Source of the DNA: Brevundimonas sp.
GTDB lineage: Bacteria > Pseudomonadota > Alphaproteobacteria > Caulobacterales > Caulobacteraceae
Length of the DNA stretch: 64,000 nucleotides
NCBI RefSeq assembly: GCF_019636155.1
Contig: NZ_JAHBYB010000004.1
Location: 155,564 to 219,563, forward strand
Reading direction: 5' to 3'
This document shows, piece after piece, positions 33,367-50,143 of this stretch. A program made the position numbers and the translations under genes. A model generated the notes under the pieces. The model saw only the letters and a program-made list of their open reading frames with translations. It did no database searches and had not been told where the DNA came from. Position 1 is the first letter of the stretch. Each line of letters starts with the position of its first letter.

Positions 33367-33609
33367 TCAATCGACATCCGGGTCGATGATCCCGGCGCGC
33401 ACCGCCACCGCCACGGCCTCGATCCGGGTGCGCACCCTCAATTTGGCGCAGGCTTTCTCCAGATAGCTGTCGACCGTGCGGGGTGAAAGCCCGACAATTT
33501 GACCGATATCGACGGAGCTCTTCCCTCGACTGACCCAAAGCAGACATTCGGATTCGCGCGCGCTCAATGGGGTGGCTGGTCGAGGTTCCGACGGGGAATC
33601 GCAGTCCAT
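33367..33609 (-). CDS. Stand-alone LuxR-type HTH regulator
   Basis: LSARESECL..V..GKSS..IG..VGLSPRTVDSY; no autoinducer domain. Confidence 0.82.
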   Translation of the reverse strand: MDCDSPSEPRPATPLSARESECLLWVSRGKSSVDIGQIVGLSPRTVDSYLEKACAKLRVRTRIEAVAVAVRAGIIDPDVD

Positions 33610-33684
33610 GGCTGATCCTCACAGTTGTCCGTGCACGTTCGGCGGGAATCAGCGCACCCGGCAACGACAGAGAATTGCGGGCCG

Positions 33685-33702
33685 CCCGCAATAAACTTGC
33701 GC
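33685..33702. promoter_or_regulatory. Candidate operator CCCGCAA-N5-TTGCGC (copy 1)
   Basis: All 13 arm bases identical to 44342-44359; adjacent 8-3-8 palindrome at 33674-33692. Confidence 0.5.
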
Positions 33703-33953
33703 AGATCGCGCGTCCGCCCTCCGCCGACACCGCCTGACTTGCGCCCAGGTCGCCTTTGATTCATGGTTCGCCCGCCGGCGCTCGCGCCGGTGGGGCCTGG
33801 AATCCCCTGTGCGACATCTGATCATCGACGGCCCCGCGCGCGACGCGGATGTCGGTTGCCGACGGCTTCGGACCCGTGCGTTCTTGCGCGTGCGCCCGGC
33901 GGCGCGGCTGCGTCGGGATTCCGGACCTCTCGCGGAGAGGCCGGAGAGGTGTG

Positions 33954-34442
33954 GTGACAGAGGCGAAGCAGCTTGGCGCGGACGGACGGGACGGTTTGAA
34001 CCGCCTGTACCGTCAATACGCCCCCTGGCTGGGTCGCCGCCTTCGCGCGCGCGTGGGCCCAGACGCCGCCGCCGACGTCGTACAGGAGACCTATATACGC
34101 GCGGCGCCCTACGCCCTTGCGGACATCCGCCATCCCAAGGCCTTCCTTCTGCGGATCGCCATGAATCTCCTGCGCGACGAGAGCCGCCGCGAGGCCCGCA
34201 AGAACCGGGAGACCGAGGGGGCCCCGTCTCCGGAAGTGGAGGCCGCCCACCAGTTCGATCATGTCCTGCTGTCTCAGGTCATCCGCTCGATGCCGCCGCT
34301 CTACCGCAACGTCTTCGTTCTGAACCGCTTTGGCGGTATGACTTATCCTGAAATCGCCCTGACGCTCGAGATAAGCGTGAAGACGGTGGAATGGCGAATG
34401 GCCAGGGCGATCGAGTACTGCGCGTCTCGGCTGGATCTGTAG
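33954..34442 (+). CDS. fecI: FecI-like ECF sigma factor
   Basis: DVVQETY, AFLLRIAMNLLRD and TYPEIA...SVKTVEWRM; GTG start after GGAGAGG. Confidence 0.85.
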   Translation: MTEAKQLGADGRDGLNRLYRQYAPWLGRRLRARVGPDAAADVVQETYIRAAPYALADIRHPKAFLLRIAMNLLRDESRREARKNRETEGAPSPEVEAAHQFDHVLLSQVIRSMPPLYRNVFVLNRFGGMTYPEIALTLEISVKTVEWRMARAIEYCASRLDL

Positions 34443-34451
34443 GCAAGACGG

Positions 34452-35426
34452 ATGACCATCGAGGGTGACGTCGACATCAGGCGGAGGGAAGCGGCTGAGT
34501 GGTTTGCTCGGCTCAACCAGCGCACGGTCACGACCGCGGACGTGAAGGGGTTCAGCGAGTGGCGCCGCGACCCCGAGAATGCGCGGGCCTTCAGTCGTGT
34601 CGAGGCCATGTGGGACGCGGCCGGCGCCCTGGCCAAAAGCCCGGAGATGTCGGCGCTCGCGCGAGAGGCGGCAGGTCTGCGCCCCCCCCCCAAACGGCGT
34701 TCGACGACCGGCCGCCTCCTACCGATCGGCGCCGCCGGCGCCTTGGCGCTGGCCTTCGGCGCGACTGCTTTCGTCTGGCTGTCCCAGCAGCCGACGCGCT
34801 ACGCCACGGCGGTAGGGGAACAACGCACCTTTCAACTTGAGGACGGCTCGCGCATCACGCTGGACACGGCGTCGGAGGTCGCCGTGCGCTTCAACGATTC
34901 CCGCCGTTCGGTCACTCTCGCAACCGGCCAGGCCATGTTCGATGTCGAAGGCGATCCGGGACGGCCCTTTGTTGTCGCGGCCGGCAACACCCGGGTGACG
35001 GCGGTCGGCACCCGCTTCGATGTCCGACGATCGGGCGCAGGCGCTCGGGTTGTTCTCGTCGAAGGGCGGGTCGATGTCCGGCGGGAGGCCGCGTCTGACG
35101 GTCAGTGGACCCTGGCGCCCGGTCAGCAGGTCACGACCTCGACGGATCGTCCGACGGTCGCGGCCGCGAACCTGCCGGCCGCCACCAGCTGGACCACGGG
35201 GCGGCTGACGTTCGAGAGCACGCCGATCGGCGAGGCCGTGGCGGAGATGAACCGCTACAGCCGCGTGTCGATCGAGCTGCGGGACGAACGAATCTCATCG
35301 ATCCAGATCAGCGGCGTGTTCAACACCGGCGACGTCGACGGCTTCGTCGCCGCGCTGAGCGACCTCTACGCCCTTCGGCCGACGGAGACCGACGATGGCC
35401 GAATCATTCTCACCGGTCCGGCCTGA
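34452..35426 (+). CDS. fecR: FecR-like anti-sigma/signal transducer
   Basis: EAAEWFARL, YATAVGEQR..LEDGS, AVGTRFDV and W..GRL motifs. Confidence 0.9.
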   Translation: MTIEGDVDIRRREAAEWFARLNQRTVTTADVKGFSEWRRDPENARAFSRVEAMWDAAGALAKSPEMSALAREAAGLRPPPKRRSTTGRLLPIGAAGALALAFGATAFVWLSQQPTRYATAVGEQRTFQLEDGSRITLDTASEVAVRFNDSRRSVTLATGQAMFDVEGDPGRPFVVAAGNTRVTAVGTRFDVRRSGAGARVVLVEGRVDVRREAASDGQWTLAPGQQVTTSTDRPTVAAANLPAATSWTTGRLTFESTPIGEAVAEMNRYSRVSIELRDERISSIQISGVFNTGDVDGFVAALSDLYALRPTETDDGRIILTGPA

Positions 35427-35445
35427 AATTAATCCGCCCTCGACT

Positions 35446-35472
35446 TAGGGGAACCTCCGCGACCCAACGTCT
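35446..35472 (+). promoter_or_regulatory. Candidate FecI-type ECF promoter of the TonB receptor
   Basis: TTAGGGGAACC-N12-CGTC upstream of the receptor gene. Confidence 0.4.
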
Positions 35473-35510
35473 CCTCCCCAGCCCGCACATCCGCGGGTAG
35501 AAAATGGGGG

Positions 35511-38471
35511 ATGGTCATGGGCCAGGGTTTCACTTCGACGGCGGTTGCCGCATTGATGCTGGGCGTCGCGACGCCGGTCATCGCGCAATCGAGCGATGTC
35601 GCGCGCCGCTTCGATATCGCGGCGGGACCGCTCGACCGCACCCTGCCCGCCTTCGCCCGCCAGAGCGGCCTTCAGATCCTCTATCCGAGCGCCCTCGTGG
35701 CGGGTCGCCGGTCGCCGGCCGTCAGCGGCGACCTGACGCCCGAGGCCGCGCTGACGCTGCTGCTGCGCGATTCCGGGCTGACCTATCGCCAGAGCCGCCC
35801 CACGGTCTTCGTTCTCGTCGATCCGACGGCCCGGGCGGATGCAGGCGAGACAGACGCGACCCAGCTCGAAGAGATCGTCGTGACCGGCACCTATCTGCGC
35901 GGCGCCGACAGCCCCTCGCCGGTGACGGTCGTCACCCAGGCGGACGTCGAACGGCAGGGCCGAGCGACCGTCGCGGAGACCCTCGCGGCCATGCCGCAGA
36001 ACTTCACCGGTTCCGCCTACGAAGGCTCGACGAATAGCGGGGCCGACCGTTCCGGGCGCAATGTCGGATCCGCGACTGGCGTCAACCTCCGCGGCCTCGG
36101 CGCCGACGCGACCCTCGTGCTGGTCAACGGGCGGCGGGTCGCCGGAACCGGCAATGCAGGGGATTTCGCGGACATTTCGAACATCCCGTCCAGCGCCATC
36201 TCTCGGGCGGACGTCCTTCTTGATGGCGCATCGGCTCTCTATGGCGCTGACGCCGTCGGCGGCGTCGTCAACATCATCCTGAAGTCCCGCTTTGAAGGCG
36301 CCGAGACCCGGGTCCGCGTCGGCGGTACGAGCGACGGCGGGGCCGAGGAGTTCCTCTTCTCCCACGCCGGAGGTCTGAGCTGGGAAAGCGGCAGCGTCGT
36401 CGCCGCCTACGAGTATCACAATCGCAGCGAGCTCCAGGGCGCGGAGCGCGACGCCACAGCGGACGCCGACCTCCGACGCTTCGGAGGCACCGACCGCCGC
36501 CTCCTCACAGCTTCACCCGGAAACATCGTCCGCCTCGACGCAGCCACCGCGACCTATATTCCGCTGTTCGCGATCCCCTCCGGGCAGAATGGCGTCGGCC
36601 TCGCGCCCGGCGACTTCATCGCCGGGCAGATCAACCGCACCAATCAACTAGAAGGCCAGTGGTTTCTGCCTCATCAAGAACGTCAGAGCCTTTTTCTAGC
36701 GGCAAGACAGAACCTGCCGGCCGGATTCAGTTTGGACGGCGATATCCGATACACCGAGCGCGACTTCTTCCTGAAGACCAGCGCGGACGCGGGGACCTTC
36801 ACCGTCACCGCCGCCAATCCTTACTTCGTCTCGCCGACCGGCTCGACGTCACATGACATCGCCTACTCGTGGGTGAACGATCTCGGACCGGGCCTGTCGG
36901 AAGGACGAACCGAAAGCCTCGGTGGTGCGCTCGGCGTCTCGGGCGAACTGCTCGGCTGGAGCGTCTCGGCCTATGCCAGCGGCGCACAGGAGACCACCGG
37001 CCGCCGGCTATCCAATCGTGTGCAGACAACCTTCCTGCAGGAGGCTCTGGGCGCACGAGCGGACATACCGACCACGACCTTCAGGACCGCGACGGACGGC
37101 TTCTTCAACCCGTTCGGCGGCCCGGCCGCGAACTCGGCGACTATCCTGGCGCACATTGGCTCGGGCTACACCGACGCCGATTACGTAAGCACCGTGTCTT
37201 CGTTCAACCTCAAGACCGATGGGACGGTCCTCGAGTTGCCCGGTGGTCCGTTGCAGGCTGCGTTCGGTCTCGACTTCCGCGCCGAGCAGTTTGAGTCGGG
37301 TGGGGAGAGCTTCCTGTCCGGGACCGCTCCGCGCGTGACCGCGCCGGTCTCGTTCGAACGGGACGTCTCCTCGGCGTTCGCCGAAGTCCGCGTACCCATA
37401 TTCGGCCCGTCCAATGCTCGCCCCGGCCTCGAGCGTCTGGAACTGTCGCTGGCCGGGCGAGTCGAAGACCACGAGGGCGTGGGGAGGACGAGCAACCCCA
37501 AGGTCGGCCTGCTCTACGGACCAACGACCGATCTGGTGTTGCGTGCCTCCTGGGGGACGTCCTTTCGCGCGCCATCTCTGAGGGAGCTGCAGAGCGCCTA
37601 TCAGATCGGCCCGTCGTTCCTGAACCGCGGCGGCGGCAACGTCCTGACCCTTATTCAGTACGGAGGAAACCCCGACCTCAGACCGGAGACAGCGGATTCC
37701 CTTACAGCAGGCTTCGTCTGGACGCCGGCGGCCTACGACGGTCTGCGCCTCGAGGGGAACTGGTTCCGCACGCGATTTAACGACCGCATCGGCAATCCGG
37801 TCATCCAGAACCTCGTCAACGCGCTGAACGACCCGGCGCTGGCGCCCTTTGTTCGCTATGTCTCTCCCACGACGTCTGCGGAAGACCGGGCTCTCGTCCA
37901 GTCGCTGCTCGACCATCCGGGCAACTTCAACCCGACGGTCTTCCCGGCGACGTCCTACGGCGTCATCGTCGACAACCGCTTCGTTAATGCGGCGAGCGTC
38001 GAGGTCGAAGGTCTGGACCTGTCCGCACGGTATCGGTTCGACTTCGCCGCCGGCCAGGCAATGGTCGACACGACCATCACCCATCTGCTGACCAACAATC
38101 GCCAGATCACGGCTACCTCCCCCACGGAGCATCTTCTCGGGGATCCGAACTTCCCGGCCCGATGGCGGGGTCGCGCCGGCAGTCAGTGGGTCCGCGGCCC
38201 GATCACCCTGGGCCTGATCGCCAACTATGTCAGCGGGGGGCGCGATCCGCTGACCAATCGCGAGATCGACGACTGGACCACCTTCGACGGTCAGGTGCGC
38301 TACGATTTCGCGGCGGGTTGGGGGGAAGGTCTCTCACTCAGCCTCAATGTGCTGAACCTCTCCAATGCGGCGCCGCCATTCTACGACTCCCCAAACGGGG
38401 TCGGCTTCGACGGCGCCAATACGAACGCGCTCGGGCGGCAGGTGTCGCTCCAACTCGTCAAGCGCTGGTGA
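35511..38471 (+). CDS. TonB-dependent transducer (receptor with N-terminal signalling domain)
   Basis: Signal peptide, STN domain, EEIVVTG TonB box, LYGADAVGGVVNII plug, C-terminal W. Confidence 0.93.
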   Translation: MVMGQGFTSTAVAALMLGVATPVIAQSSDVARRFDIAAGPLDRTLPAFARQSGLQILYPSALVAGRRSPAVSGDLTPEAALTLLLRDSGLTYRQSRPTVFVLVDPTARADAGETDATQLEEIVVTGTYLRGADSPSPVTVVTQADVERQGRATVAETLAAMPQNFTGSAYEGSTNSGADRSGRNVGSATGVNLRGLGADATLVLVNGRRVAGTGNAGDFADISNIPSSAISRADVLLDGASALYGADAVGGVVNIILKSRFEGAETRVRVGGTSDGGAEEFLFSHAGGLSWESGSVVAAYEYHNRSELQGAERDATADADLRRFGGTDRRLLTASPGNIVRLDAATATYIPLFAIPSGQNGVGLAPGDFIAGQINRTNQLEGQWFLPHQERQSLFLAARQNLPAGFSLDGDIRYTERDFFLKTSADAGTFTVTAANPYFVSPTGSTSHDIAYSWVNDLGPGLSEGRTESLGGALGVSGELLGWSVSAYASGAQETTGRRLSNRVQTTFLQEALGARADIPTTTFRTATDGFFNPFGGPAANSATILAHIGSGYTDADYVSTVSSFNLKTDGTVLELPGGPLQAAFGLDFRAEQFESGGESFLSGTAPRVTAPVSFERDVSSAFAEVRVPIFGPSNARPGLERLELSLAGRVEDHEGVGRTSNPKVGLLYGPTTDLVLRASWGTSFRAPSLRELQSAYQIGPSFLNRGGGNVLTLIQYGGNPDLRPETADSLTAGFVWTPAAYDGLRLEGNWFRTRFNDRIGNPVIQNLVNALNDPALAPFVRYVSPTTSAEDRALVQSLLDHPGNFNPTVFPATSYGVIVDNRFVNAASVEVEGLDLSARYRFDFAAGQAMVDTTITHLLTNNRQITATSPTEHLLGDPNFPARWRGRAGSQWVRGPITLGLIANYVSGGRDPLTNREIDDWTTFDGQVRYDFAAGWGEGLSLSLNVLNLSNAAPPFYDSPNGVGFDGANTNALGRQVSLQLVKRW

Positions 38472-38477
38472 TCCGCC

Positions 38478-40868
38478 ATGCGCAACACATTGATCACTGC
38501 GCTCGGCGCACTCGCGCTCACATGCCCGTCGTCCGCCCAGTCGGAGCCGCTCACCCTCGAAACCCTGCTCGGCCTGGAGGCCTTCGGCCGGATCGAGATC
38601 GATCCTTCCGGTGCCGTCGCCGTTTTCGAGGAGCGCCGCGCGCGTGGCGATCTTCCGCGCTATGACCTGCAGCCCGAGGGCGCTCTCAGGTACGCCAGTC
38701 TGTACCGTTTCGACGTCGAGACCCCGGCCAATGTCCGCCCCCTTCTGCCGATGGACGATGACGCCGGCTACACCATGGGTCCGTTCTCACCCGACGGCTC
38801 GCGGCTGATCGTCTTTCGTCTTCAGGACCTGACGTTTCGGCTGGGTATCGTTGACCTGCGGACCGGGGCTGTCGCCTGGACCGATCTTTCACCGGAGAGC
38901 GGCGCCTGGGGGCGGTCGGTCCAATGGATCTCGGACGTCGAGGTCCTCGTGCTCGGCATGCCGGGCGGGGCCCTGCCGCCGCGTCTCGCCATGCAGAACG
39001 TGACCCAGACCCACCTCCCCGATCTCTGGGCGCAGGCCGCCCGGGGGGAGCCGTCCTTTGTGTCGGTCGGACTGGGTGCTCCGGAGGAGGTCCGCGAAAC
39101 CCGCGCGCTATGGCGGGTGAACGCCGACACGGGCACGGCCACCGTCGTCACAGAGGGCGACTTCCTGGATTTCGAGGCGTCCCCCGACGGCAAGCACATC
39201 GCAGTGCTCAAGGACGGCCCTCTTGCCCCGCCCCCCGGCCTCGAAGCGTCGACCGAGTTTCGCAGGGCGCGTTCGTTACGCCTCGTCGAGACGCAGACGG
39301 GCTTGTCGGTGGACCCGCCCGAGGCCGTCGATATCTCGACCAGCCTCCTCGGCTGGGCTCCGGACTCCTCTGCGGTGCTGGTGACCGTTGTCGGCGCCGA
39401 ACCCGCCCGGCTACTCTCCATTACGCCCCACGGGCAGGTTCAAGAGCGGACGCCGGCCGGCGTGTCGCTTGACACGACGGCCGACGTGTTCGGGAGCCCA
39501 ACGACGCACGCAGCCTGGCTTGGCGCCGATGTGGTCGTTCGAGGAACACGCGACGGCGAAACGGGCTGGTGGTCTGAGCGAGCGTCGGAGGTCATCGCTG
39601 TGAACACTTTGAGCGACAGCGCGCGCGTGGTCGCCCAGGGACGACAGGCGGCTCTGTTCGAGGATCGGGGTCGCATCCTTCGCCTTGGCTCCGATCTGTC
39701 GCCGGAGGATCTCGGCCCGACAGGCACGCGTTCGCGCGCCCTCGGCATCTTCGGACATCGGCGCCAGACCGATCCGATGGGCGCAAGCGAGGCGGAGGTC
39801 ATCGGAGACAGCGGTCAGTTGTGTCGCGTCTCCGCAGATGCCGAGCCCGCACCGCCACCGTGCGTCGCCGCGATGCCCGGAGCCAGCGTCAGTTGGAGTC
39901 AGAGGATCAGTGTCGGCATCGGAACCGAGGGCCGCGCGCCGAACCGCCTTGAGGTCCGTAGCGAGACGGGCTCGGTGATCATCAGACGTCTCAACCCGGA
40001 GCTGGACGCCGTCTGGGTGCCCGAGCCTCGCCTGATCAATGGCCCGAACGGTGCGCGAGGCTGGCTCTATCTGCCCGAGACGGCGGAGAACCAGCCCCCG
40101 CCGGTCATCGTCATTCCCTACCCAGGGAAGGCCTATCCCACAGCGCCATCGGCCATGCGCCCGGAGGCGGTGCAGATGACGCTGAACGGGGGACTGCTGG
40201 TCGCGGCGGGCTATGCCGTGATCTATCCGGACTTGCCGACGAACGCCGAACCGTCCGCCGGCCTCGCGGACAGGATCCTCGCCGTCGTCGACGCCGCAGG
40301 CGACGATGGCTCCATCGATACTGATCGGATCGGCCTCTGGGGTCACAGTTTCGGAGGCTGGTCGGTCGTCATGAGCGCCACCCAGTCGCCACGCTTCAAG
40401 GCGGTCGTCGCCCTCAATGGCCCTTACAACCTGCAACTCGCGCTCTCCGATATGTCGCCGAACCAGCGCATTCTAGGTGGAAACACCACCGACGCCGTGA
40501 GCGGTGCACGATGGCTCGAAACCGGGCAGGCGGGCATGGTCCAGTCCTACTGGACCGACCCGGAGCGCTACAGACGAGGGAGTCCTTTCGAGAATGCCGA
40601 TCGAATTGCAGCGCCGGTCCTTCTGATCCACGGCGAGTTGGACTTCCTAGGGGCACACGCCGAGCAGATGTACGCCGCACTTGTGAGACTTCGACGGCCG
40701 GCAGCACTCACCTATCTGTTCGGCGAGGATCACAGTATCCACAATCCCGGCAACGCTAGGATCTACTACGATCAACTGACGGCTTGGTTCGACCGATACC
40801 TCAGACCCGAGGTGCCGCGATCCGGGCCTGCCATCGCCGTAGCCAGGCCTCCGTCAACGCCAGGGTGA
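38478..40868 (+). CDS. Lasso peptide isopeptidase (AtxE2-like, S9 family)
   Basis: Signal peptide; GHSFG nucleophile elbow, HGELD, EDHSI; context next to lasso B/C genes. Confidence 0.85.
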   Translation: MRNTLITALGALALTCPSSAQSEPLTLETLLGLEAFGRIEIDPSGAVAVFEERRARGDLPRYDLQPEGALRYASLYRFDVETPANVRPLLPMDDDAGYTMGPFSPDGSRLIVFRLQDLTFRLGIVDLRTGAVAWTDLSPESGAWGRSVQWISDVEVLVLGMPGGALPPRLAMQNVTQTHLPDLWAQAARGEPSFVSVGLGAPEEVRETRALWRVNADTGTATVVTEGDFLDFEASPDGKHIAVLKDGPLAPPPGLEASTEFRRARSLRLVETQTGLSVDPPEAVDISTSLLGWAPDSSAVLVTVVGAEPARLLSITPHGQVQERTPAGVSLDTTADVFGSPTTHAAWLGADVVVRGTRDGETGWWSERASEVIAVNTLSDSARVVAQGRQAALFEDRGRILRLGSDLSPEDLGPTGTRSRALGIFGHRRQTDPMGASEAEVIGDSGQLCRVSADAEPAPPPCVAAMPGASVSWSQRISVGIGTEGRAPNRLEVRSETGSVIIRRLNPELDAVWVPEPRLINGPNGARGWLYLPETAENQPPPVIVIPYPGKAYPTAPSAMRPEAVQMTLNGGLLVAAGYAVIYPDLPTNAEPSAGLADRILAVVDAAGDDGSIDTDRIGLWGHSFGGWSVVMSATQSPRFKAVVALNGPYNLQLALSDMSPNQRILGGNTTDAVSGARWLETGQAGMVQSYWTDPERYRRGSPFENADRIAAPVLLIHGELDFLGAHAEQMYAALVRLRRPAALTYLFGEDHSIHNPGNARIYYDQLTAWFDRYLRPEVPRSGPAIAVARPPSTPG

Positions 40869-42516
40869 CGAGCCTGGCGAACCCTCCCTGCCAGACCAGG
40901 GCTTCGCGTGTCGTCTCGTCCGCGAGGCCCTGCGGCAGGAGCCCAGCTGCGGCCAGTTCGCCTTCGAGCAGATAGCTGCGAAGAAAGTCCAGATTCCTGG
41001 CCACGGCTTCGCCGTAGAAGGCCCCCAATTCCCCCTTGGAACGGCGATTGAATATGGAAGCAGGGATCGCGTCGGCATAGGCGGCACGTGCCGCGAAACG
41101 GTCACGGCCGCCCCACGTCAAGTCGACAGAGGACCAGGCCAGACCGGCCTCCATGACGGGCTGGCTCAGGAGCGGATTGACGCACGGGCCATATCGCCCC
41201 CTCACGGCGTGTCCCTGAAAAGCCTGAGAATTGACCAGCCCGAGGATTTGGGTGGCCTTTGCGGGCGGCACCCCCTGAAGATCGTCGAGCCAAGGGTGTC
41301 TCCGGTCGCGCAATGCGCGCGTGTGGGCCCGTCGCGCCTTCAGCCAAGCGTTCGGCCAGAGCGACTGGCCGGTCCAGCGCGCGGCGCTGTGAAGCACCTC
41401 GGGCCGCGTGCGCAGCTGTCTTTCATGGACCTCATCGAATGCAATCAGATAACTCGGCATCTGGAAAAACACGACGTCGCCACCCTGCCCCGTCAGCGAG
41501 CCCCAGGCGCCCGAGCTCTCGACCCTCGCCGCGATGTCGTCGTTGTAGTCCGTGTCGAGGTCGTTAACCGGGGGCCTGAAGGCATCGGCCGAGAGCGCGA
41601 GCCGCGCCGCCGACAAATTTAGTCCGTTGCGTTTCACTTCAGTCAGGCGGTAGCCATGTCGCTCGACCACCGGACGCGCGAAGGCGCGCTCGTCCCCCTC
41701 CGGATCGTCTACGAAGTGGTTGACCCACTGCGTGATACGGGCGCGCTGATGATCGCTGAGCGCGCCCGCTATAATCGCCGAATCCAGCCCTCCGCTAACT
41801 TCCACGACCCAAGCTCGCTCGCCCGCCAGCGCTCGCACACTTCGATCGACTACCTCACGAAGATCCGGCCGAACCTGCTCCCGCGCCCTCCGGTAGACCT
41901 CCGACGGTCGCCAGATCTGCCGCGACCGAACCCCCGCCGGACCGATGTGGAGGAGCGCGCCGGACGCAACCGGAGTGAGAGCCGACAGGGCCAGTTCGTG
42001 GCGATAGCCGCCGCCCCGCGTGAGAAGCCCCCTCATCGATTCCCAGTCGATTGTGAGATTATCGGGCAGCAGGCAGTCTAGGGCGGGCGGGGCTGTCGGG
42101 GCGATAACCGTCACACCGTCCTTACGCCAGGCGACCGCCTCGACGGCCCCGGACGGGTCACGGAGGATCGCAGCGTCGCCTGATGTCCGCCGAACCACGA
42201 CGTATCGCCCCCAGAAGGTCGACACGATATCGCTCGCGCGGTTCGCGTCGAGAGCGCGACAGGCAACGACGCCCCGTTCCTCCGGCGATAGCGATCGCCC
42301 GACATGGTCGAATATCTCTCCGACCATAACCCCGTGACCGTCGAGAGCCGCCACGATCTCGAGCCGGGACGTCGCGGGCGCGTAGACGGCTATGAAAGGG
42401 TGTGAGACGCGGCGGCTCCATCCCGCCCCAGCCAAGCGTCGGGCGATCTTCCGCGACAGCGTCTCCAGGGCCCCCGCGTCATCGGCCGCGAGCACGACAT
42501 AGGCATCAGCGCTCAT
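40801..42516 (-). CDS. Lasso cyclase (asparagine synthetase-like C protein)
   Basis: SGGLDS and LTGQGGD motifs, VNPLLSQP; start trimmed to MSADAY. Confidence 0.88.
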   Translation of the reverse strand: MSADAYVVLAADDAGALETLSRKIARRLAGAGWSRRVSHPFIAVYAPATSRLEIVAALDGHGVMVGEIFDHVGRSLSPEERGVVACRALDANRASDIVSTFWGRYVVVRRTSGDAAILRDPSGAVEAVAWRKDGVTVIAPTAPPALDCLLPDNLTIDWESMRGLLTRGGGYRHELALSALTPVASGALLHIGPAGVRSRQIWRPSEVYRRAREQVRPDLREVVDRSVRALAGERAWVVEVSGGLDSAIIAGALSDHQRARITQWVNHFVDDPEGDERAFARPVVERHGYRLTEVKRNGLNLSAARLALSADAFRPPVNDLDTDYNDDIAARVESSGAWGSLTGQGGDVVFFQMPSYLIAFDEVHERQLRTRPEVLHSAARWTGQSLWPNAWLKARRAHTRALRDRRHPWLDDLQGVPPAKATQILGLVNSQAFQGHAVRGRYGPCVNPLLSQPVMEAGLAWSSVDLTWGGRDRFAARAAYADAIPASIFNRRSKGELGAFYGEAVARNLDFLRSYLLEGELAAAGLLPQGLADETTREALVWQGGFARLVTLALTEAWLRRWQARIAAPRV

Positions 42517-42518
42517 GG

Positions 42519-43184
42519 TCAGATCGCCATGATGGGACGGTAAATCGTCAGGGTGTCGGGCGACTGGCTGACGCAATGCTCGTCCACCTGCAGCCAGCAG
42601 TGCGCGAGGAAGGGCCACACGCGGACACCGAAGACCCAGTCCGCATCGAGGTCGGCCGCGTTCAGAAACCGGAGCAGCAGCTCGGCCTGAAACAGGCAGG
42701 CGCCGACGGCCGGGGCGTAGGGGAGCAGTTGGCGAAAGAGACGGACCCGCGCCGCGATGGCGTCGAGATCGTCTCGGCGGCCGCGCCGCCCGGATACTTG
42801 GCGCGCCAGCGACTGAAGCGTCGGCTTGCGTCGCGCTGTATCGGCCCAGAGCATCGCGAAAGTTGCTATATCCACGGCGGACGGCCGCCCGGCCTCAACG
42901 TCCGGAAGCCGGCGAAGCGGAATCGGCGGCGGTGGCGACCGCCGAACCGACGGCGCACCCGATTGCAGAAGTTCGTTCGCGGCCAGATCGAGCATCAGAT
43001 CCATCGGCGCCCGCAATGACCCGCCGTCGACCCGAACCTGGGCGCAGTCTGGGACAAGAAAATAGCCGTCCGTCGAAAGGTCCAGGAGGACGAGATCGGA
43101 GCCCAACTTTACAGCATGCACTGTCTCGGCGAGTTCGCCGCTCTCGTGGCGTTCTCCGAACGAAGGCGAGACGACGGTCTGCAT
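42519..43184 (-). CDS. Lasso B protein (fused RRE plus transglutaminase-like leader peptidase)
   Basis: DLVLLDL..DGYF RRE; ACLFQA, FGVRVWPFLAHCWLQ catalytic C/H. Confidence 0.9.
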   Translation of the reverse strand: MQTVVSPSFGERHESGELAETVHAVKLGSDLVLLDLSTDGYFLVPDCAQVRVDGGSLRAPMDLMLDLAANELLQSGAPSVRRSPPPPIPLRRLPDVEAGRPSAVDIATFAMLWADTARRKPTLQSLARQVSGRRGRRDDLDAIAARVRLFRQLLPYAPAVGACLFQAELLLRFLNAADLDADWVFGVRVWPFLAHCWLQVDEHCVSQSPDTLTIYRPIMAI

Positions 43185-43236
43185 AAGGCGTTTCCGGTCA
43201 GGAAATGACTGTTGCTGTACGGTGCGGGGCGGCAGA

Positions 43237-43262
43237 TCGGGCCGTCAGCGAGGACGGCCCGA
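43237..43262 (-). terminator. Stem-loop between precursor A1 and B gene
   Basis: 10-bp stem TCGGGCCGTC/GACGGCCCGA, 6-nt loop. Confidence 0.65.
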
Positions 43263-43268
43263 CCGTCA

Positions 43269-43388
43269 TCAGCCGACCGGCATGTCCCACTTGAGGTGGG
43301 AGTTGAGCTCGACGAGCTCGCCGTCCACCGCGGCGCGGGTCAGGCGCCGCGCCTGGCCCAGCCGCAGTACTCGAATGGTGGCTTTCAT
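43269..43388 (-). CDS. Lasso precursor A1: leader MKATIRVLRLGQARRLTR, core AAVDGELVELNSHLKWDMPVG
   Basis: GGAG RBS 7 nt upstream, LRLG.AR.LT leader with Thr at -2, Glu9 acceptor. Confidence 0.9.
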   Translation of the reverse strand: MKATIRVLRLGQARRLTRAAVDGELVELNSHLKWDMPVG

Positions 43389-43483
43389 CGCCATTCTCCA
43401 TGTTGTCGTGATACCCCTTGAGATCATCGCAACGGTCGGGGCGTGCCGCGCGTCGGGGCGACCCGGTCGGGCAGCCCCTTCGG

Positions 43484-43612
43484 TCAGGCGCCCGGAGTGA
43501 CGTCGTAGCGCTCGAGCGGGTTCAGCTCGATGAACGTGCCCTCGACGCCAGCACGAGTGAGCTTGCGAGCGGCGCCTAGGCGAACGAGGCGCGAGATGCT
43601 CTTGGTGGTCAT
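43484..43612 (-). CDS. Lasso precursor A2: leader MTTKSISRLVRLGAARKLTR, core AGVEGTFIELNPLERYDVTPGA
   Basis: AGAGGAG RBS, same leader motif, Thr at -2, Glu9 acceptor; translated by hand, absent from the ORF track. Confidence 0.9.
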   Translation of the reverse strand: MTTKSISRLVRLGAARKLTRAGVEGTFIELNPLERYDVTPGA

Positions 43613-43682
43613 GGTCGTCTCCTCTTTCTGAAGGTCGACAGAAGGTCGACGACGAACCATCAGCGCCCATCCACAAATCGAT

Positions 43683-44249
43683 TCAAACGATATTGCGGAT
43701 GTATTCGGAGCCGTCGGCGTTCAACCGCCTGACCCGCGCGGCTAGGCCGCCGGCTGCGGTCCGCCACCGCGCGTAGTAGGCATCGAGGTAGTCCAGCTCC
43801 GGCCCCCCCGATGGGGATATCGGCCCGTTGAGCCGGCGCAAGGGAGCGAGCCGCCGCCGGACCCGCATGAGACTTTCGACCAGCGGCTGGCTCTCGCAAT
43901 GATCCAGCAATGCGACGATCCAGGTCTCAACGGCTGCGTCCGAGCCGTCGCTTAAAGGAGGCGCAGCGGCCGAGCAGGTCGCTGCGAGCCGGACGTGCGC
44001 GGCCTCGAGATCGAGCAAGCCGATGATGTCTTCCACCGGCGCGGGGCGGGTGAAGTATCCGAGGCCTCGTCGATCCTCGACGAGGCCTTCCCCGCAGAGC
44101 CGGGACAGAGCCTCCCGAACGGGGCTGGTGCTGAGTTTCAGCGATGCGGCGATATCGGCCACCGGTAGATGTTGTCCGGGCGCGAGCCCTTGCTCGAGAG
44201 CCTCGCGCAGGCTGGTCACCGCGGAGCCGAAAGGATCGCGCTGTCTCAC
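43683..44249 (-). CDS. GntR family transcriptional regulator
   Basis: LAPGQHL....IAASLKLSTSPVREALSRL..EGLV wHTH; GntR is typical of isopeptidase-type lasso clusters. Confidence 0.85.
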   Translation of the reverse strand: MRQRDPFGSAVTSLREALEQGLAPGQHLPVADIAASLKLSTSPVREALSRLCGEGLVEDRRGLGYFTRPAPVEDIIGLLDLEAAHVRLAATCSAAAPPLSDGSDAAVETWIVALLDHCESQPLVESLMRVRRRLAPLRRLNGPISPSGGPELDYLDAYYARWRTAAGGLAARVRRLNADGSEYIRNIV

Positions 44250-44341
44250 GGGCCATCCCCGCAAGAAATGCGCCCCGCCCGTAGGTCAACGACCCTCCGG
44301 TTTCGGGGCGCGCACGCGGCGAGATAGCGCCTATACTCAAA

Positions 44342-44359
44342 CCCGCAAGAACATTGCGC
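44342..44359. promoter_or_regulatory. Candidate operator CCCGCAA-N5-TTGCGC (copy 2)
   Basis: Overlaps a plausible -35 (TTGCGG) of the gntR-lasso promoter in an AT-rich divergent region. Confidence 0.5.
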
Positions 44360-44486
44360 CATGACCGCAGCTTTTATGCTATTGATCCTATTAGGCTTTC
44401 ATTTGATGCGAGGCTGAGGCATTTTTCAACCTGCAGGGGTGAAGGGAGCCCTTCCTAAAGCCAAAGACGGGGTGGTGGACCGAAGC

Positions 44487-44978
44487 ATGGACAGTCGGCA
44501 AACCCCGTCACCCAACGCGGTGCTCTCCGCCAGCCTTCGTCTCATCCGGTCTCACAGGCGAATGCGGACCATCGATGTGGCCGCCGGGATGAACATGGCC
44601 CTGAGGTCCTACGAGCACTTCGAGTCCGGCGCCGGCCGCATCAACCTGGAGCGGATCCACCGCTTCGCCGAGGTCACCAACAGCGACGCGCACGCCATCC
44701 TCGCCGCGCTGGCGATCGGCTCTCCGGCCTTCGCCTTGCGGTGCGCGGACAACAAGCTGGCGACCATCATCGCGGTCGTCCTTCAGGAGTTCGACGAGGA
44801 GGCGGGAGACGCGATCGCCGACCTCGACGCCCGGACGATCATCAACGCCTTCACCAAGACGCTGAAGGATCTGGCCGACCAGTCCGTCCGCAAGGACGCT
44901 GAAGCCGAAGCCTGGCTCGCGGAGCGGAAAGGGCGACTGATGACGCCCGCGCGGGACGACGGCTCCGGCGACGCCTGA
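44487..44978 (+). CDS. XRE-family HTH regulator
   Basis: LRLIR....MRTIDVAAGMNMALRSYEHFESG helix-turn-helix. Confidence 0.8.
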   Translation: MDSRQTPSPNAVLSASLRLIRSHRRMRTIDVAAGMNMALRSYEHFESGAGRINLERIHRFAEVTNSDAHAILAALAIGSPAFALRCADNKLATIIAVVLQEFDEEAGDAIADLDARTIINAFTKTLKDLADQSVRKDAEAEAWLAERKGRLMTPARDDGSGDA

Positions 44979-45026
44979 CCGACCGCGAATTCCCGTCCGC
45001 AACCTTCCCGGATCGACGCGGCGGCC

Positions 45027-45305
45027 TTGTCGGCGGCCAATGGCGAGGTGCGCCTTGATCCCTCCCCAACCTCATCAAACGCCGCCCTGGGCGACCTGAC
45101 TCCGCGCCAGCAGGCGTGTCTCGAACTCGCCGCCGAAGGCCTGACCTCGGCGGCGATCGCCGAACGCCTCGGAGTCTCACCCCGAACAGTTGACGAGCAT
45201 CTGACCTCGGCGTGCGAGGCGCTGGGTGTTCGGACTCGCATTCAGGCGGTTGCGCGGCTGGCGCAGGGCGAGCGCCGCGGTGAGGCCCGCAGTTTCCGTC
45301 CGTAG
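45027..45305 (+). CDS. Second stand-alone LuxR-type HTH regulator
   Basis: LTPRQQACL.L...GLTSAAIAERLGVSPRTVDEH; start uncertain. Confidence 0.8.
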   Translation: MSAANGEVRLDPSPTSSNAALGDLTPRQQACLELAAEGLTSAAIAERLGVSPRTVDEHLTSACEALGVRTRIQAVARLAQGERRGEARSFRP

Positions 45306-45382
45306 ATTTTCGGCGGGAAGGTCGCGGGTCGTTCGCGGGCGACGGATCGGATGAGGTGACGGCCTTCAGCCAGGAGCCCTGC

Positions 45383-46000
45383 ATGCTCGATCTCGTCGCG
45401 GTTCTCGCCCTGTCCCAGGTCTGTGCGCCCTCCGTCGCTCCCGAGACGTTGGCGGCCATCTCCCATGTCGAGAGTCGCTTCGATCCGCTGGCGATCGGCG
45501 TCAACCGCGGCGGACGTCGTCCGCCCCGCGCTCGCAACGCCGCCGAGGCGGCGCGATCGGCGAGGGGGCTACTGGCCGACGGGGCAAACATCGACCTCGG
45601 TCTGGCGCAGATCAACAGCAGCAACCTGCACTGGCTTGGCCTGACGGTGGAAGATGCGTTCGACCCCTGTCGCAACCTCGCGGCGGCCGCGACCGTCCTG
45701 CGCGCGGGATATCGGGCTACCAGCAGCGCCGCTTCGGACCAGCAAGCCGCCCTGCGCATCGCGCTCTCCCGGTACAATACCGGCGATGCGGAACGAGGCT
45801 TCCGAAACGGATACGTCGGTCGAGTCGAGGATGCCGCGATAGCGCTCAGGCTGGCCCGTCCAGCGGCCGCAGCCGCCGCCACGGACACGCGCGCGCCGCC
45901 GATTTCGCCTTCGCTTGAAGCCGCGCCGCTGCCCCCCTGGGACATCTTCGGCCGCGCCCGGGCCGACCTGTTCGTCATCTCAAACCCAGCCGCACGGTGA
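45383..46000 (+). CDS. virB1: Lytic transglycosylase
   Basis: HVESRFDPLAIGVN, DLGLAQINS, ALSRYNTG; AGGAG RBS. Confidence 0.9.
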   Translation: MLDLVAVLALSQVCAPSVAPETLAAISHVESRFDPLAIGVNRGGRRPPRARNAAEAARSARGLLADGANIDLGLAQINSSNLHWLGLTVEDAFDPCRNLAAAATVLRAGYRATSSAASDQQAALRIALSRYNTGDAERGFRNGYVGRVEDAAIALRLARPAAAAAATDTRAPPISPSLEAAPLPPWDIFGRARADLFVISNPAAR

Positions 46001-46005
46001 TCCCG

Positions 46006-46317
46006 ATGACTTCAGCTGCGCACCTTCGTCGCCCCGCCCGTCATCTGGGCGCGCTCCTGTGCATCGCCCTGGCCGCGACCGCGCTGACCGCCCAGCCCGC
46101 CCTGGCGTCCGCCAACGTCGAAGGGCTGCTGCAGAACGTGGTCGACATGCTCACGGGCAACACCGCCCGGCTCCTTGCGGTGCTCGCGGTGGTGGTGGTC
46201 GGCATTCTGTGGATGTTCGGTCTGTTCGACCTTCGCCGGGCGGCCATCGTCGTGCTCGGGATCGTGGTGGTCTTCGGTGCGGCCGAGATCGTCAACCTGA
46301 TCACCGGGGGCTCGTGA
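46006..46317 (+). CDS. virB2: Pilin
   Basis: Signal plus two hydrophobic helices, FGAAEIV. Confidence 0.88.
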   Translation: MTSAAHLRRPARHLGALLCIALAATALTAQPALASANVEGLLQNVVDMLTGNTARLLAVLAVVVVGILWMFGLFDLRRAAIVVLGIVVVFGAAEIVNLITGGS

Positions 46318-46499
46318 TGCCCTCCCCGGCGGCGACCCTCCTGATCGGCGCGATCGCCGCCTTGCTGGCGCTGTGTCTCGCCCAGGGCCTGGGCCTGATT
46401 TCGCCGAAGCGGTTCGCCCAGCTCGTGGGCGGCGCAGCCGGCGGGGTCGCTCTAATCTGCGCCGGCGTCTGGCTCGCGGAGGGAGGCGCCCATGGCTGA
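46317..46499 (+). CDS. Small hydrophobic protein (60 aa) between virB2 and virB3
   Basis: TGATG overlap with virB2 stop, overlap with virB3 start, two TM-like segments. Confidence 0.6.
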   Translation: MPSPAATLLIGAIAALLALCLAQGLGLISPKRFAQLVGGAAGGVALICAGVWLAEGGAHG

Positions 46500-46827
46500 G
46501 GAACGCCTAACGGAGGATCCCCTCTTCCTCGCCTGCACCCGCCCCGCCATGGTCATGGGGGTGCCGATGGAGGCCATGGGGGTCAACGTCATCCTCTCCG
46601 GCGTGGTGTTCCTCATCGGCGGGAGCCTGCTTTACCTGCTCGTCGCACCGGCCCTTCACCTGGTGTTCCGCGCAATCTGCCGCGCCGATCACAACGCCTT
46701 CCGCCTCCTCTTCGTCTACGTCGACACCAAGGGCCGCTGCCGCAACGGCGCGCTGTGGGGCGGCAGCTCCGTGTCGCCTCTGCCCGTCGTGCGCCGTTAC
46801 GTCGTCGCGGAGCTGCGCCGTGGCTGA
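46492..46827 (+). CDS. virB3: T4SS inner membrane protein
   Basis: DPLFLACTRPAMVMGVP signature. Confidence 0.9.
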   Translation: MAEERLTEDPLFLACTRPAMVMGVPMEAMGVNVILSGVVFLIGGSLLYLLVAPALHLVFRAICRADHNAFRLLFVYVDTKGRCRNGALWGGSSVSPLPVVRRYVVAELRRG

Positions 46828-49195
46828 CGGCGTCGCCTCCCGGTCGCGTCTGCGCCGCGAGACCGAAGTCCGGTCCCACCTCCCCTATGCGCGCCATGTG
46901 AACGACCACGTCGTCGCCCTCGACAGCGGCGCGCTCATGATGGTCTTCCAGGTCGCGGGCGCGAGTTTCGAGACGGCCGACGCGCGCGACCTCAACGACT
47001 GGCACCTCAAGCTGAACCAGGCGTGGCGAAACCTCGCCGACGAGAGGCTGGCGGTCTGGCATCATATCGTCCGACGGGAGGTTCACCCGGAGCCTTCCCG
47101 AGGCCATCGGTCGGCGTTCGCGGCCAGCCTGGCCGCCGACTACGACGCCCAGATGTCGAGCCGGCGGCTCTGGATCAACGAGCTGTTCGTCACCCTCGTG
47201 CTGCAGCCCGGCCGCGACCGCACCGACCGCGCCGCCGCCATGATGCGACGCCTGCGGCAGGCGCGCCGTGACGACGGCGAGGCGATGGTCGCGCAGGTCC
47301 GCCGGCTCGAGGAGGCCGGTCGTGATCTGGCCCAGTATCTGGATCGCTACGCCCCGCGCCGCCTGGGGCTGCACGAGCGGGGCGGTCTCTGGTTCTCGGA
47401 GCCCCTGGAGGTCGTGGGCCTGATCCTGACGGGACGACGTTCGCCCGCGCCGCTCGTCTACGGCCACCTCGGCGCGGCCGCCTATACGATCAGGGCGATC
47501 TTCGGCCGCGAAACCGTGGAGCTGCGGGGCGCGGCCGGCGAGCGTTTCGGCGGAATTCTCGCCATCAAGGAGTACCCGGCGACGACACGCCCAGGCCTTT
47601 GGGATGCGCTGCTCAACGCCCGCTTCGGCTTCGTCATGTCGCAGTCGTTCGCCTTCCTGTCGAAGGCGGCGGCGCGCGCGGTGATGGAGCGCAAGCAGAA
47701 CCAGATGGTGTCGGCCCGCGACAAGGCCGGCTCCCAGATCGCCGGCCTGTCTGACGCCCTGGATGATCTGGTCAGCAACCGGTTCGTGATGGGCGAACAT
47801 CAGGCGTCCGTCCTGGTCCATGGCGACACCCCCGTCGCCCTGGCGGACCATCTGTCGAAGGCGCGCGCCATCCTCGCCGACTCCGGCCTGGTGGTGGCAC
47901 GCGAAGATCTGGGGCTGGAGGCGGCGTTCTGGTCGCAGTTTCCGGGGGTCTTCTCCCGCCGCACCCGACCGGCGGCGATCACCTCGCGCAACTTCGCGGC
48001 GCTGGCCCCCCTGCACGCCCACCCGGTCGGCAAGGCGGACGGCAATCACTGGGGTCCGGCGGTCGCCGTTTTGCGTACGACGGCCGGGTCACCCTTCCAC
48101 TTCAACTTCCACGTCGGCGACGTGGGCCACACCTTCATCTGCGGCCCGTCGGGGTCCGGCAAGACGGTCGTCCAGAACTTCATGCTGGCGCAGCTGGAGC
48201 GGTTCGGCGCCCAGCAGATCTTCATCGACAAGGATCGCGGCGCCGAAATCTTCGTGCGGGCCAGCGGCGGGACCTATCTTGCGCTTCGCAACGGCGAGCC
48301 GACGGGCTTCGCCCCCTTCAAGGCGCTCCCGCCGTCTCCGTCCAACCGGGCCTTCCTCGTCCGGTTGATCCGCACGCTGGTCGCCCGGCCCGACGAGACC
48401 CTGTCCGTCGCCCAGGCCCGGTCGATCGACGAAGGCGTGTCGGCGCTCGAGGCGCTGCCGCGCGAACGCCGCTCCATCGCCGCCATGCGCAGTCTACTTG
48501 GCCAGGCGGACGCTGGCGGCATCGGCGCCCGTCTGGAACGCTGGCAGAAGGGCGGCCCGCTCGGCTGGGTGCTCGACAACGACGAGGACGCGCTCAGCCT
48601 CGAGGCCCGGTTCGCTGGCTTCGACATGACCCACGTCCTGGACCACGACGAGGTCCGGACCCCGGCCATGCTCTACCTGTTCCACCGCATCACGGAGCGG
48701 GTCGATGGTCGGCGGCTGGTCCTGGACATCGACGAGTTCTGGAAGGTGCTGGGCGACGCCGCCTTCACCGATCTGGCCCAGGACGGGCTGAAGACCTGGC
48801 GCAAGCAGAACGCCTTCATGGTGTTCGGCACCCAGTCGCCGGCGGACGTCCTGCGCTCGCCGATCGCCCACGCCATCCTGGAACAGTGCGCGACCCAGAT
48901 CTTCCTGCCGAACGCTCACGGCCAGGCGCGCGACTATGTCGACGGCTTCGGGCTGACGCAGGAGGAATTCCGGCTCGTGCGCGAGGAGCTGACGCCGGAG
49001 TCCCACCGCTTCCTCGTCAAGCAGGGCCACGACAGCGTCGTCGTCGAACTGAACCTCGACGGCATGGACGACGCCTTGGCGATCCTGTCCGGTCGCGCCG
49101 GGACCGTCGGCTTGCTGGACCGCATCCGCGCCGAGGTCGGCGACGATTACGCGCTCTGGCGCGCCCCCTTTCACGCCCAAAGGAGAATGTCATGA
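46820..49195 (+). CDS. virB4: T4SS ATPase
   Basis: GPSGSGKT Walker A, IDEFW, RKQN, TQSP. Confidence 0.95.
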   Translation: MADGVASRSRLRRETEVRSHLPYARHVNDHVVALDSGALMMVFQVAGASFETADARDLNDWHLKLNQAWRNLADERLAVWHHIVRREVHPEPSRGHRSAFAASLAADYDAQMSSRRLWINELFVTLVLQPGRDRTDRAAAMMRRLRQARRDDGEAMVAQVRRLEEAGRDLAQYLDRYAPRRLGLHERGGLWFSEPLEVVGLILTGRRSPAPLVYGHLGAAAYTIRAIFGRETVELRGAAGERFGGILAIKEYPATTRPGLWDALLNARFGFVMSQSFAFLSKAAARAVMERKQNQMVSARDKAGSQIAGLSDALDDLVSNRFVMGEHQASVLVHGDTPVALADHLSKARAILADSGLVVAREDLGLEAAFWSQFPGVFSRRTRPAAITSRNFAALAPLHAHPVGKADGNHWGPAVAVLRTTAGSPFHFNFHVGDVGHTFICGPSGSGKTVVQNFMLAQLERFGAQQIFIDKDRGAEIFVRASGGTYLALRNGEPTGFAPFKALPPSPSNRAFLVRLIRTLVARPDETLSVAQARSIDEGVSALEALPRERRSIAAMRSLLGQADAGGIGARLERWQKGGPLGWVLDNDEDALSLEARFAGFDMTHVLDHDEVRTPAMLYLFHRITERVDGRRLVLDIDEFWKVLGDAAFTDLAQDGLKTWRKQNAFMVFGTQSPADVLRSPIAHAILEQCATQIFLPNAHGQARDYVDGFGLTQEEFRLVREELTPESHRFLVKQGHDSVVVELNLDGMDDALAILSGRAGTVGLLDRIRAEVGDDYALWRAPFHAQRRMS

Positions 49196-50141: not shown

Positions 50142-50143
50142 CT

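Follow-up and report, generated by a model that had tools for sequence, protein, structure and literature searches.

Lasso peptide gene clusters that encode an isopeptidase and not an exporter, such as those for the astexins of Asticcacaulis, the caulonodins and caulosegnins of Caulobacter, and the benenodins, were described by Maksimov & Link 2013 and Zimmermann et al. 2014, whose work PMC7549694 and PMC11006600 cite. Both citing papers give a layout of GntR, FecI, FecR and a TonB-dependent receptor without an ATP-binding cassette (ABC) exporter, and both still treat the function of such clusters, open since 2013, as an open question, for which only a siderophore-like role has been offered. 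In the present study we analysed a lasso cluster matching this layout, located within a predicted integrative and conjugative element (ICE) of Brevundimonas sp., in a 64,000-nt stretch of contig NZ_JAHBYB010000004.1 (positions 155,564 to 219,563; hereafter the window). The host genome is 2.79 Mb in size, with a GC content of approximately 68%, and the closest related loci are titled Brevundimonas. Full-text searches, whose coverage leaves out most subscription journals, returned no paper linking lasso clusters to type IV secretion systems (T4SS) or ICEs.

Domain calls were made with Pfam and NCBIfam profiles, and these agreed with the gene order and domains proposed in the first-pass annotation of the window. 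From left to right, luxR1 points leftwards; fecI, fecR, the gene of a TonB-dependent transducer (TBDT) with an STN domain, and that of an S9 serine peptidase point rightwards; C, B, A1, A2 and gntR point leftwards; and xre, luxR2, virB1-11 and virD4 point rightwards. The lasso genes between the two luxR genes are referred to below as the cassette. As in the isopeptidase-type clusters, gntR, several precursors, B and C share one strand, the FecI, FecR, TBDT and serine peptidase genes converge on the lasso genes, the precursors have Thr at leader position -2, and an exporter is missing (Pfam detected no ABC exporter in the block, as had been claimed). Two further claims were borne out: there is no credible gene in the gap between gntR and xre, and the block is flanked by paralogous LuxR helix-turn-helix (HTH) proteins, LuxR1 and LuxR2 being 49% identical over 53 aa of the HTH. 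The locus differs from the isopeptidase-type clusters in (i) its peptidase, an S9 enzyme of approximately 800 aa that scores far below the AtxE2-family cut-off, (ii) an XRE-family regulator as a constant extra member, and (iii) its location at the virB head, bracketed by a pair of LuxR genes, which is kept across the ICE clade.

The S9 peptidase matched the AtxE2 model NF033523 with 52.7 bits (cut-off 400), in the C-terminal domain only, and phmmer did not link it to AtxE2. A profile built from 13 of its homologues matched the AtxE2 chain 5txc (E=2e-16), with the match again confined to the catalytic domain and with better scores for different S9 peptidases. The earlier designation as an isopeptidase is thus corrected to S9 peptidase: position and orientation agree with the known type, but in view of the low score against the AtxE2 model the name rests on position and context.

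Conservation and exchange of the cassette at the virB head

Related elements were sampled through VirB4, a procedure blind to lasso genes (one genome per species, 80 loci, 10-kb flanks), and linkage was counted over the 56 loci that had VirB4 at 72% identity or more and no less than 6.5 kb of DNA upstream; the loci are mutually related, so the counts are of non-independent events. Lasso B/C genes and xre were found directly upstream of luxR2-virB1 in 55 of these 56 loci. The exception is L051, which shares a contig with L009 and carries approximately 44 kb inserted between luxR2 and virB2. No element (0/56) had an empty or otherwise filled site between luxR1 and luxR2. Sampling was also performed from the side of the S9 peptidase, a homologue of which is present in 85 of the 399 genomes of the family. 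In 20-kb regions around the 20 best S9-peptidase places (some 98 further places were among the matches), the full order (leftward luxR1; rightward fecI, fecR, TBDT and S9 genes; leftward C, B, A, A and gntR; rightward xre, luxR2 and virB1-B4) was observed in 17 cases, and it was still seen in another genus with the peptidase at 36% and VirB4 at 65% identity. The three exceptions are L007, a remnant of C and the peptidase, L021, with a truncated cluster, and L023, from another genus, where the cluster includes xre and no virB was seen within 6 kb. The linkage of the lasso genes to virB, which the first-pass annotation had proposed to survey and whose absence from related elements would have counted against its reading, is thus clearly conserved in both samplings.

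A different picture emerged for the sister clade of Caulobacteraceae elements of mating-pair formation class T (MPF-T; VirB4 66-71% identical; Phenylobacterium, Caulobacter and B. staleyi pFWC43), in which lasso genes were detected in 1 of 13 loci, the remaining 12 having a luxR-luxR-virB1 head. These elements share with the window element the T4SS family and small HTH-only LuxR genes upstream of virB1; however, their luxR pair is adjacent, while elements of the Brevundimonas clade have the cassette between the two genes and luxR1 inverted. Other insertions that break adjacency were noted, namely approximately 5 kb between luxR2 and virB1 in L075 (3628-8579) and 1.27 kb between xre and luxR2 in L010.

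The cyclase tree revealed two deep clades, type I (including the window) and type II. In the analyses of cassette types (parsimony changes, approximately unbiased (AU) test and pair identities), which exclude L075 and L079, the type label needs a single change on the peptidase, C, B, GntR and Xre trees, and 4, 5, 7 and 8 changes on the trees of LuxR2, VirB1, VirB3 and VirB4, respectively. The AU test rejected a single clade of VirB4 from type-I-bearing elements (delta lnL 527.6, p=4.7e-5). In the pairs listed in Table 1, the breakpoint falls between luxR2 and virB1 (L072/L077, L052/L080) or between virB1 and virB3 (L033/L044, L033/L034), which indicates that the exchanged unit is the cassette plus xre, usually with luxR2 too. 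In genomes with two elements, these carry different cassette variants.

Table 1. Protein identities between paired elements
Pair	VirB4	VirB1	VirB3	C	Xre	LuxR2
L072/L077	97%	99%	99%	39%	72%	73%
L052/L080	97%	98%	96%	38%	72%	78%
L033/L044	98%	67%	99%	43%	70%	67%
L033/L034	98%	66%	98%	39%	65%	69%

The type II element, seen in full in L104-L106, has the same architecture, including luxR1. Between the two types, identity is 81% for LuxR1, approximately 61% for Xre, 52% for the transducer, and approximately 35% and 33% for C and GntR; across 17 related loci, LuxR1 is 65-91% identical. In the 1.5 kb to the left of luxR1, 13 unrelated classes were distinguished among 20 loci (merR/copA in the window, ars genes in L104-L106). 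This diversity, together with the identity of LuxR1, indicates that cargo turns over just outside luxR1 while the cassette is always located between luxR1 and luxR2. Comparison of the loci showed that the cassette is a fixed yet exchangeable module in the regulatory head of the Brevundimonas ICE family and not loose cargo, and that it has been replaced several times by a version of approximately 35% identity, along with xre and usually luxR2. On this evidence, a conjugative element family has one large lineage of such lasso clusters in its regulatory head as a constant component that can be exchanged, and the near-identical T4SS machines with different cassettes offer a natural allelic series.

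Palindromes, promoter candidates and the Xre protein

The sequence CCCGCAA-N5-TTGCGC occurs just twice in the 2.79-Mb genome, at 33685 and 44342, i.e. once at each flank of the cassette, in its two divergent promoter regions, as compared with approximately 0.2 copies expected (our own estimate from base composition). The earlier observation of the same palindrome at both flanks was thereby strengthened, these being its sole genomic copies. The shorter form CGCAA-N5-TTGCG is not enriched by itself (2 copies in the window versus 1.03 expected), and for this reason the argument depends on the longer match, together with where it lies and how it is conserved. In a survey of 55 non-identical loci of approximately 22 kb each, the motif was present between gntR and xre in 43, between xre and luxR2 in 14, all of type II, and almost nowhere else. 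Among the lasso-less sister elements only L086 has it: this element encodes an xre homologue, and copies of the motif lie between xre and luxR and between luxR and virB1. The motif thus tracks xre/gntR and not luxR. A related sequence, ACCCGCAA-N5-TTGCGG, was found approximately 130 bp upstream of gntR in a second lasso cluster of the same genome (contig C36, described below). The exact palindrome was rejected as a feature of distant cassettes: it does not extend to L022, L102 and L107, and is therefore specific to the Brevundimonas lineage. Since the HTH of Xre is nearly invariant across cassette types, while GntR is only approximately 33% identical, we infer that Xre is the better candidate for the palindrome-binding protein, with GntR as the alternative.

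The first-pass annotation had treated xre as a conjugation regulator. This assignment was not upheld: xre is a gene of the lasso cassette, its tree splits by cassette type, and it is present in cassettes without an adjacent T4SS. Databases start the protein at M17 (44487). The window xre ORF had no Pfam match and only a faint NCBIfam match to RstR. The AlphaFold model is confident for the HTH only, and Foldseek searches with it returned HTH matches only, none at E<=0.001, leaving the C-terminal part unmatched. Matches to 'Pizza' proteins in the PDB sequences were spurious and due to the low-complexity N-terminus, and weak matches to PrgX and Stl were not used.

Related cassettes were identified away from this T4SS. 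The second lasso cassette of the same genome (L003, C36:70400-82700) consists of fecI, fecR, TBDT and S9 genes, C, B, A, A and xre, plus two GntR genes, and here xre heads the operon xre-A-A-B-C. The 11 metagenome relatives of this cluster have exchanged C and the peptidase (38-39% identity) but keep xre and gntR at 92-97% identity. Two Polymorphobacter plasmids, p29334-1 and p29334-2 (L107 and L108), carry the same kind of cassette, with xre, separated by one HEPN gene from the traL-traE-traK head of an F-type transfer operon; Polymorphobacter belongs to a different order of Alphaproteobacteria. In L097 (2167-8288), a metagenome-assembled Caulobacter genome of the lasso-less sister clade, FecI, FecR, TBDT (STN) and metallophosphoesterase genes divergently adjoin luxR-virB1, a further cell-surface signalling module at this T4SS head.

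Several other conserved sites were detected in the spacers of the cassette. The single genomic copy of GACTTAGGG...ACGTCTC, which is plausibly a FecI-dependent promoter, stands before the TBDT gene and is followed by a hairpin that may be an attenuator or leader structure. Just upstream of fecI, a near-invariant GGGGCCTGGAATCCCCTGTGCGA element could serve as promoter or leader; other copies in the genome fall within coding DNA. The word TGGAATCCCC was rejected as a shared regulatory element, since the seven other genomic copies are in coding DNA. The type I spacer between gntR and xre is strongly conserved (CTATACT...CCGCAAGAAACTTGCG...CTTTCATTTGA...GCATTTTTCAACC), and its right half also occurs in type II. 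A scan of 33200-46600 with the sigma-70 consensus found no promoter, as expected in a GC-rich organism. In the ICE context, xre is oriented towards luxR2-virB1; in the window the gaps are 49 and 50 bp, and the scan for terminator-like sites gave none from xre through luxR2 to virB1.

A conserved non-coding insert of approximately 180 nt was observed in the luxR1-fecI spacer of L012 (2116-2300) and of 15 other related loci of types I and II, one per locus. The window (where it would fall near 33703) and the rest of the host genome do not contain it. The insert may be a leader or a small RNA; Rfam searches of the insert and of the whole block gave sub-threshold miRNA noise only.

Possible control of transfer and alternative explanations

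Peptide-controlled conjugation is known from Gram-positive bacteria, in which it involves cCF10/iCF10-PrgX in pCF10 and RapI-PhrI in ICEBs1. The window element resembles these systems in encoding small peptides, a dedicated import and sensing route, and a regulator beside the transfer genes, with the role in transfer being proposed here; polymorphic, exchangeable cassette types would resemble pherotypes. It differs from them in that its peptides are lasso peptides, i.e. made on ribosomes and then modified post-translationally, and not linear oligopeptides, and in that sensing is proposed to proceed through the TBDT and FecR-FecI in place of an oligopeptide permease (Opp) and a cytoplasmic RRNPP receptor. 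Pfam detected no RRNPP/TPR protein in the block, and the C-terminal part of Xre is without a confident structural match. With FecA-FecR-FecI the locus shares an STN transducer, a FecR-type regulator and an extracytoplasmic function (ECF) sigma factor in one operon, and a candidate promoter before the transducer gene. Unlike that system, the presumed ligand is a self-made peptide and not an iron chelate, the operon includes a peptidase, and the region upstream of the sigma gene carries the cassette palindrome.

The model that we put forward, in which the cassette circuit is coupled to xre-luxR2-virB and tunes transfer, appears quite possible, if short of an even chance. Element carriers would make lasso peptides, which would be detected and imported only by cells with a matching transducer. 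FecR-FecI would turn up the transducer and peptidase genes, and the peptidase, placed in the periplasm, would open the imported peptide. The HTH regulators of the cassette (Xre favoured, GntR as the alternative) would act at the shared palindromes and couple the state of the circuit to xre-luxR2-virB transcription, the element thereby tuning its transfer to the presence of same-type carriers. In favour of this model stand the conserved linkage, the location of the cassette inside the backbone, its repeated swaps, the shared palindromes, the lack of terminator-like sites from xre to virB1, and the modules beside other transfer heads in Polymorphobacter and L097. Peptide control of transfer in general is plausible, though we would not call it probable. 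A stricter version seems rather unlikely: that the peptides are private, protease-proof signals by which carriers of the same element are sensed, with the transducer and Xre/GntR gating luxR2-virB and the cassette types acting as pherotypes. If true, Gram-negative bacteria would have their first conjugation system under peptide control, and isopeptidase-type lasso peptides their first physiological role. A functional link would mean that horizontal gene transfer in Gram-negative bacteria, too, can be under peptide control, and would constitute a new use of TonB-dependent cell-surface signalling; a non-functional one would still leave a biosynthetic cluster fixed inside the backbone of a mobile element. 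The phenotype offered is concrete and cheap to assay (virB expression, excision and mating frequency).

Of the overall interpretation in the first-pass annotation, the linkage to virB, conserved through swaps, and the shared palindrome stood, whereas the relay from TBDT-FecR-FecI to virB gained no support: the sole candidate FecI promoter precedes the TBDT gene, xre is a cassette gene, and cassettes with no T4SS beside them persist. Because this candidate promoter is unique in the genome, nothing in the sequence supports a direct FecI-virB relay.

Further observations weigh against control of transfer by the cassette. Type I elements, including that of the window, have no full palindrome between xre and luxR2, and no second ACTTAG...CGTCT copy was found before xre, luxR2 or virB1, a weak negative given that the promoter is itself a candidate. 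Cassettes of this family that include xre are also kept where no T4SS adjoins them: the second cassette of the host genome lies approximately 14 kb from a Trb-type T4SS and not at its head, and its 11 metagenome relatives have no virB within 10 kb. On the conjugative plasmid p1 of Caulobacter sp. FWC26, a benenodin cluster of AtxE2 type differs from the present one in having neither xre nor a T4SS as a neighbour. In addition, no export route for the peptide is evident, and an old insertion that happened once, plus a benefit to the host, could account for the retention of the cassette within one clade.

A private good is a doubtful yet serious alternative, in which the secreted peptide, perhaps a metal or nutrient carrier, would be taken up through its own TBDT and opened by the S9 peptidase, benefiting the host without affecting transfer. 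The position at the T4SS head would then stem from one old insertion kept by host-level selection and linkage, and the diversification of types would reflect cheater avoidance, as at pyoverdine/receptor loci. It is favoured by the conservation of the same family, with xre, away from any adjacent T4SS, where C and the peptidase are swapped too, and by the lack of T4SS linkage in AtxE2-type clusters. The confinement of the candidate sigma-dependent promoter to the TBDT-peptidase operon, a self-contained logic, and the left arm of the window element, otherwise made up of metal-resistance cargo, point the same way, as does the siderophore-like cargo release proposed for such clusters (PMC11006600, citing Chekan 2016). 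However, mere cargo sits poorly with a cassette held within the luxR1-luxR2 backbone, at a site that is never empty or otherwise filled, while the cargo outside turns over. Equally, xre reads into luxR2-virB past no terminator-like site, the operator motif also precedes luxR2 in 14 loci, luxR2 moves with the cassette in recent exchanges, and there is a second, independent adjacency to the head of a transfer operon in Polymorphobacter.

Competition or addiction, for which plasmid-borne microcins are the model, appears improbable. The peptides would harm element-free cells or carriers of another type, and the peptidase and regulated uptake would serve as immunity, stabilising the element or favouring its carriers; cassette polymorphism and the differing variants in two-element genomes fit such immunity groups. 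However, astexin- or caulonodin-type peptides are not known to be antimicrobial, the sole dedicated receptor is encoded by the cassette, leaving element-free cells without an obvious entry route, and the cassette has no exporter or immunity ABC pump. Antimicrobial activity and entry by way of TonB-dependent receptors are documented for many lasso peptides (PMC13352647, PMC7549694), but it is the D gene that marks potentially antibacterial clusters, and most proteobacterial clusters without an ABC transporter carry an isopeptidase (PMC7549694). That the T4SS itself is the missing exporter, which would account for the lack of an ABC pump as well as for the direct adjacency of the cassette to the virB operon, is very improbable: some cassettes of this family have no T4SS beside them, related peptides have been made heterologously in E. 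coli, some of them recovered from the culture medium (PMC7549694, production table), and a coupling protein and relaxase are present, as for DNA transfer. Least credible is a one-off insertion beside the T4SS with a palindrome matching by chance. The short form of the palindrome is indeed not enriched in the window, but this explanation is already contradicted by the linkage in 55 of 56 loci, the restriction of the 13-base motif to the two flanks in 2.79 Mb, and its position, kept in 43 loci.

Lasso precursors and other features of the window

The two precursors are missing from the list of longest open reading frames (ORFs), and each is preceded by a ribosome-binding site. Their leaders and cores are MKATIRVLRLGQARRLTR and AAVDGELVELNSHLKWDMPVG for A1, and MTTKSISRLVRLGAARKLTR and AGVEGTFIELNPLERYDVTPGA for A2. 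Both have Thr at -2, the leader ending in LTR, and cores of the form A......E9, in which Ala1 and Glu9 would close the predicted ring; the pattern is kept in related loci, where A1 homologues are 84-92% identical. Caulonodins also have Ala at core position 1, a cited title saying only 'unprecedented N-terminal residues'. With this precursor pattern, B and C, the locus is, as read from its genes, a class II lasso cluster. Stop codons in the aligned segments of the cyclase were rejected as signs of pseudogenes, being an artefact of an over-long N-terminal ORF call, and C may be damaged in L070 only. In the type II cassettes L104, L105 (14751-14984, minus strand) and L106, a single 77-aa ORF contains two tandem leader-core units (MLKNLTRLISLGSAAHHTR and AEVGVEKPELNPIQYYDEAGSG, followed by LLRLGSAADQTR and ADSPDGEFELIPVQRWTMTGVRFH), and may be a fused double lasso precursor.

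The features of the window are listed in Table 2. The real start of fecI may lie further downstream, and that of C is probably near 42530. By its gene content, the virB/virD4 set is a complete MPF-T T4SS with a coupling protein, i.e. a predicted conjugation machine.

Table 2. Genes and candidate regulatory sites of the window
Feature	Position	Strand	Basis
luxR1, 80-aa HTH-only LuxR/GerE, conserved left border of the block	33367..33609	-	Pfam GerE, E=5.6e-14
Operator-like TTGCGG-N5-CCGCAA-N5-TTGCGC, luxR1-fecI spacer	33675..33702	.	kept in type I and type II loci
Conserved GGGGCCTGGAATCCCCTGTGCGA element just upstream of fecI	33792..33814	+	near-invariant in 17 related loci, also in type II
fecI, ECF sigma factor	33849..34442	+	Pfam Sigma70_r2 (PF04542), r4_2 (PF08281), ECF
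fecR, transmembrane anti-sigma / sigma regulator	34452..35426	+	DUF4880 (PF16220), FecR (PF04773), FecR_C (PF16344)
Candidate FecI-dependent promoter GACTTAGGG...ACGTCTC, fecR-TBDT spacer	35442..35473	+	kept in 16 related loci
Conserved hairpin CCCC..CCCGCA-N5-GCGGG..GGGG	35474..35510	.	between candidate promoter and TBDT start codon
TonB-dependent transducer, N-terminal STN (PF07660) signalling domain	35511..38471	+	Pfam STN, Plug, barrel
S9 serine peptidase, 796 aa, signal peptide, presumed lasso isopeptidase	38478..40868	+	Pfam Peptidase_S9
Lasso cyclase C	40801..42618	-	Pfam Asn_synthase (PF00733), NCBIfam macrolactam cyclase subfamily
Lasso leader peptidase B	42519..43184	-	Transglut_core3 (PF13471); NCBIfam lasso B2 NF033537, 54.4 bits (cut-off 33)
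Precursor A1, core AAVDGELVELNSHLKWDMPVG	43269..43388	-	read directly from sequence
Precursor A2, core AGVEGTFIELNPLERYDVTPGA	43484..43612	-	read directly from sequence
GntR-family regulator, first gene of gntR-A2-A1-B-C operon	43683..44264	-	Pfam GntR
Operator-like CCCGCAA-N5-TTGCGC-N6-CCGCAG, gntR-xre spacer	44342..44370	.	kept in related loci
Candidate xre promoter or leader CTTTCATTTGA...GCATTTTTCAACC	44396..44432	+	kept in types I and II despite diverged neighbour genes
xre, XRE-family HTH regulator with helical C-terminal part	44439..44978	+	PF13560/PF01381 on homologues
luxR2, 92-aa HTH-only LuxR/GerE, directly before virB1	45027..45305	+	Pfam GerE
virB1-virB6, virB8-virB11, virD4	45356..56732	+	Pfam SLT, TrbC/VirB2, VirB3, CagE_TrbE_VirB, T4SS (VirB5), TrbL, VirB8, CagX, TrbI, T2SSE, T4SS-DNA_transf
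MobA/VirD2-type relaxase of the element	60201..61226	-	Pfam Relaxase, E=6.7e-14

A megablast search of the block against plasmids gave no match. ARAGORN called no tRNA at 10070-10202, and its 92-nt 'tRNA-Cys' at 51817-51908 (minus strand), within virB8, is probably a false positive. Downstream of virD4 (56729-59327), the window encodes an LPD7-domain protein followed, on the opposite strand, by an ArsH-like FMN reductase and an ACR3/SBF transporter; in the type II elements, similar ars genes are located on the other side, to the left of luxR1.

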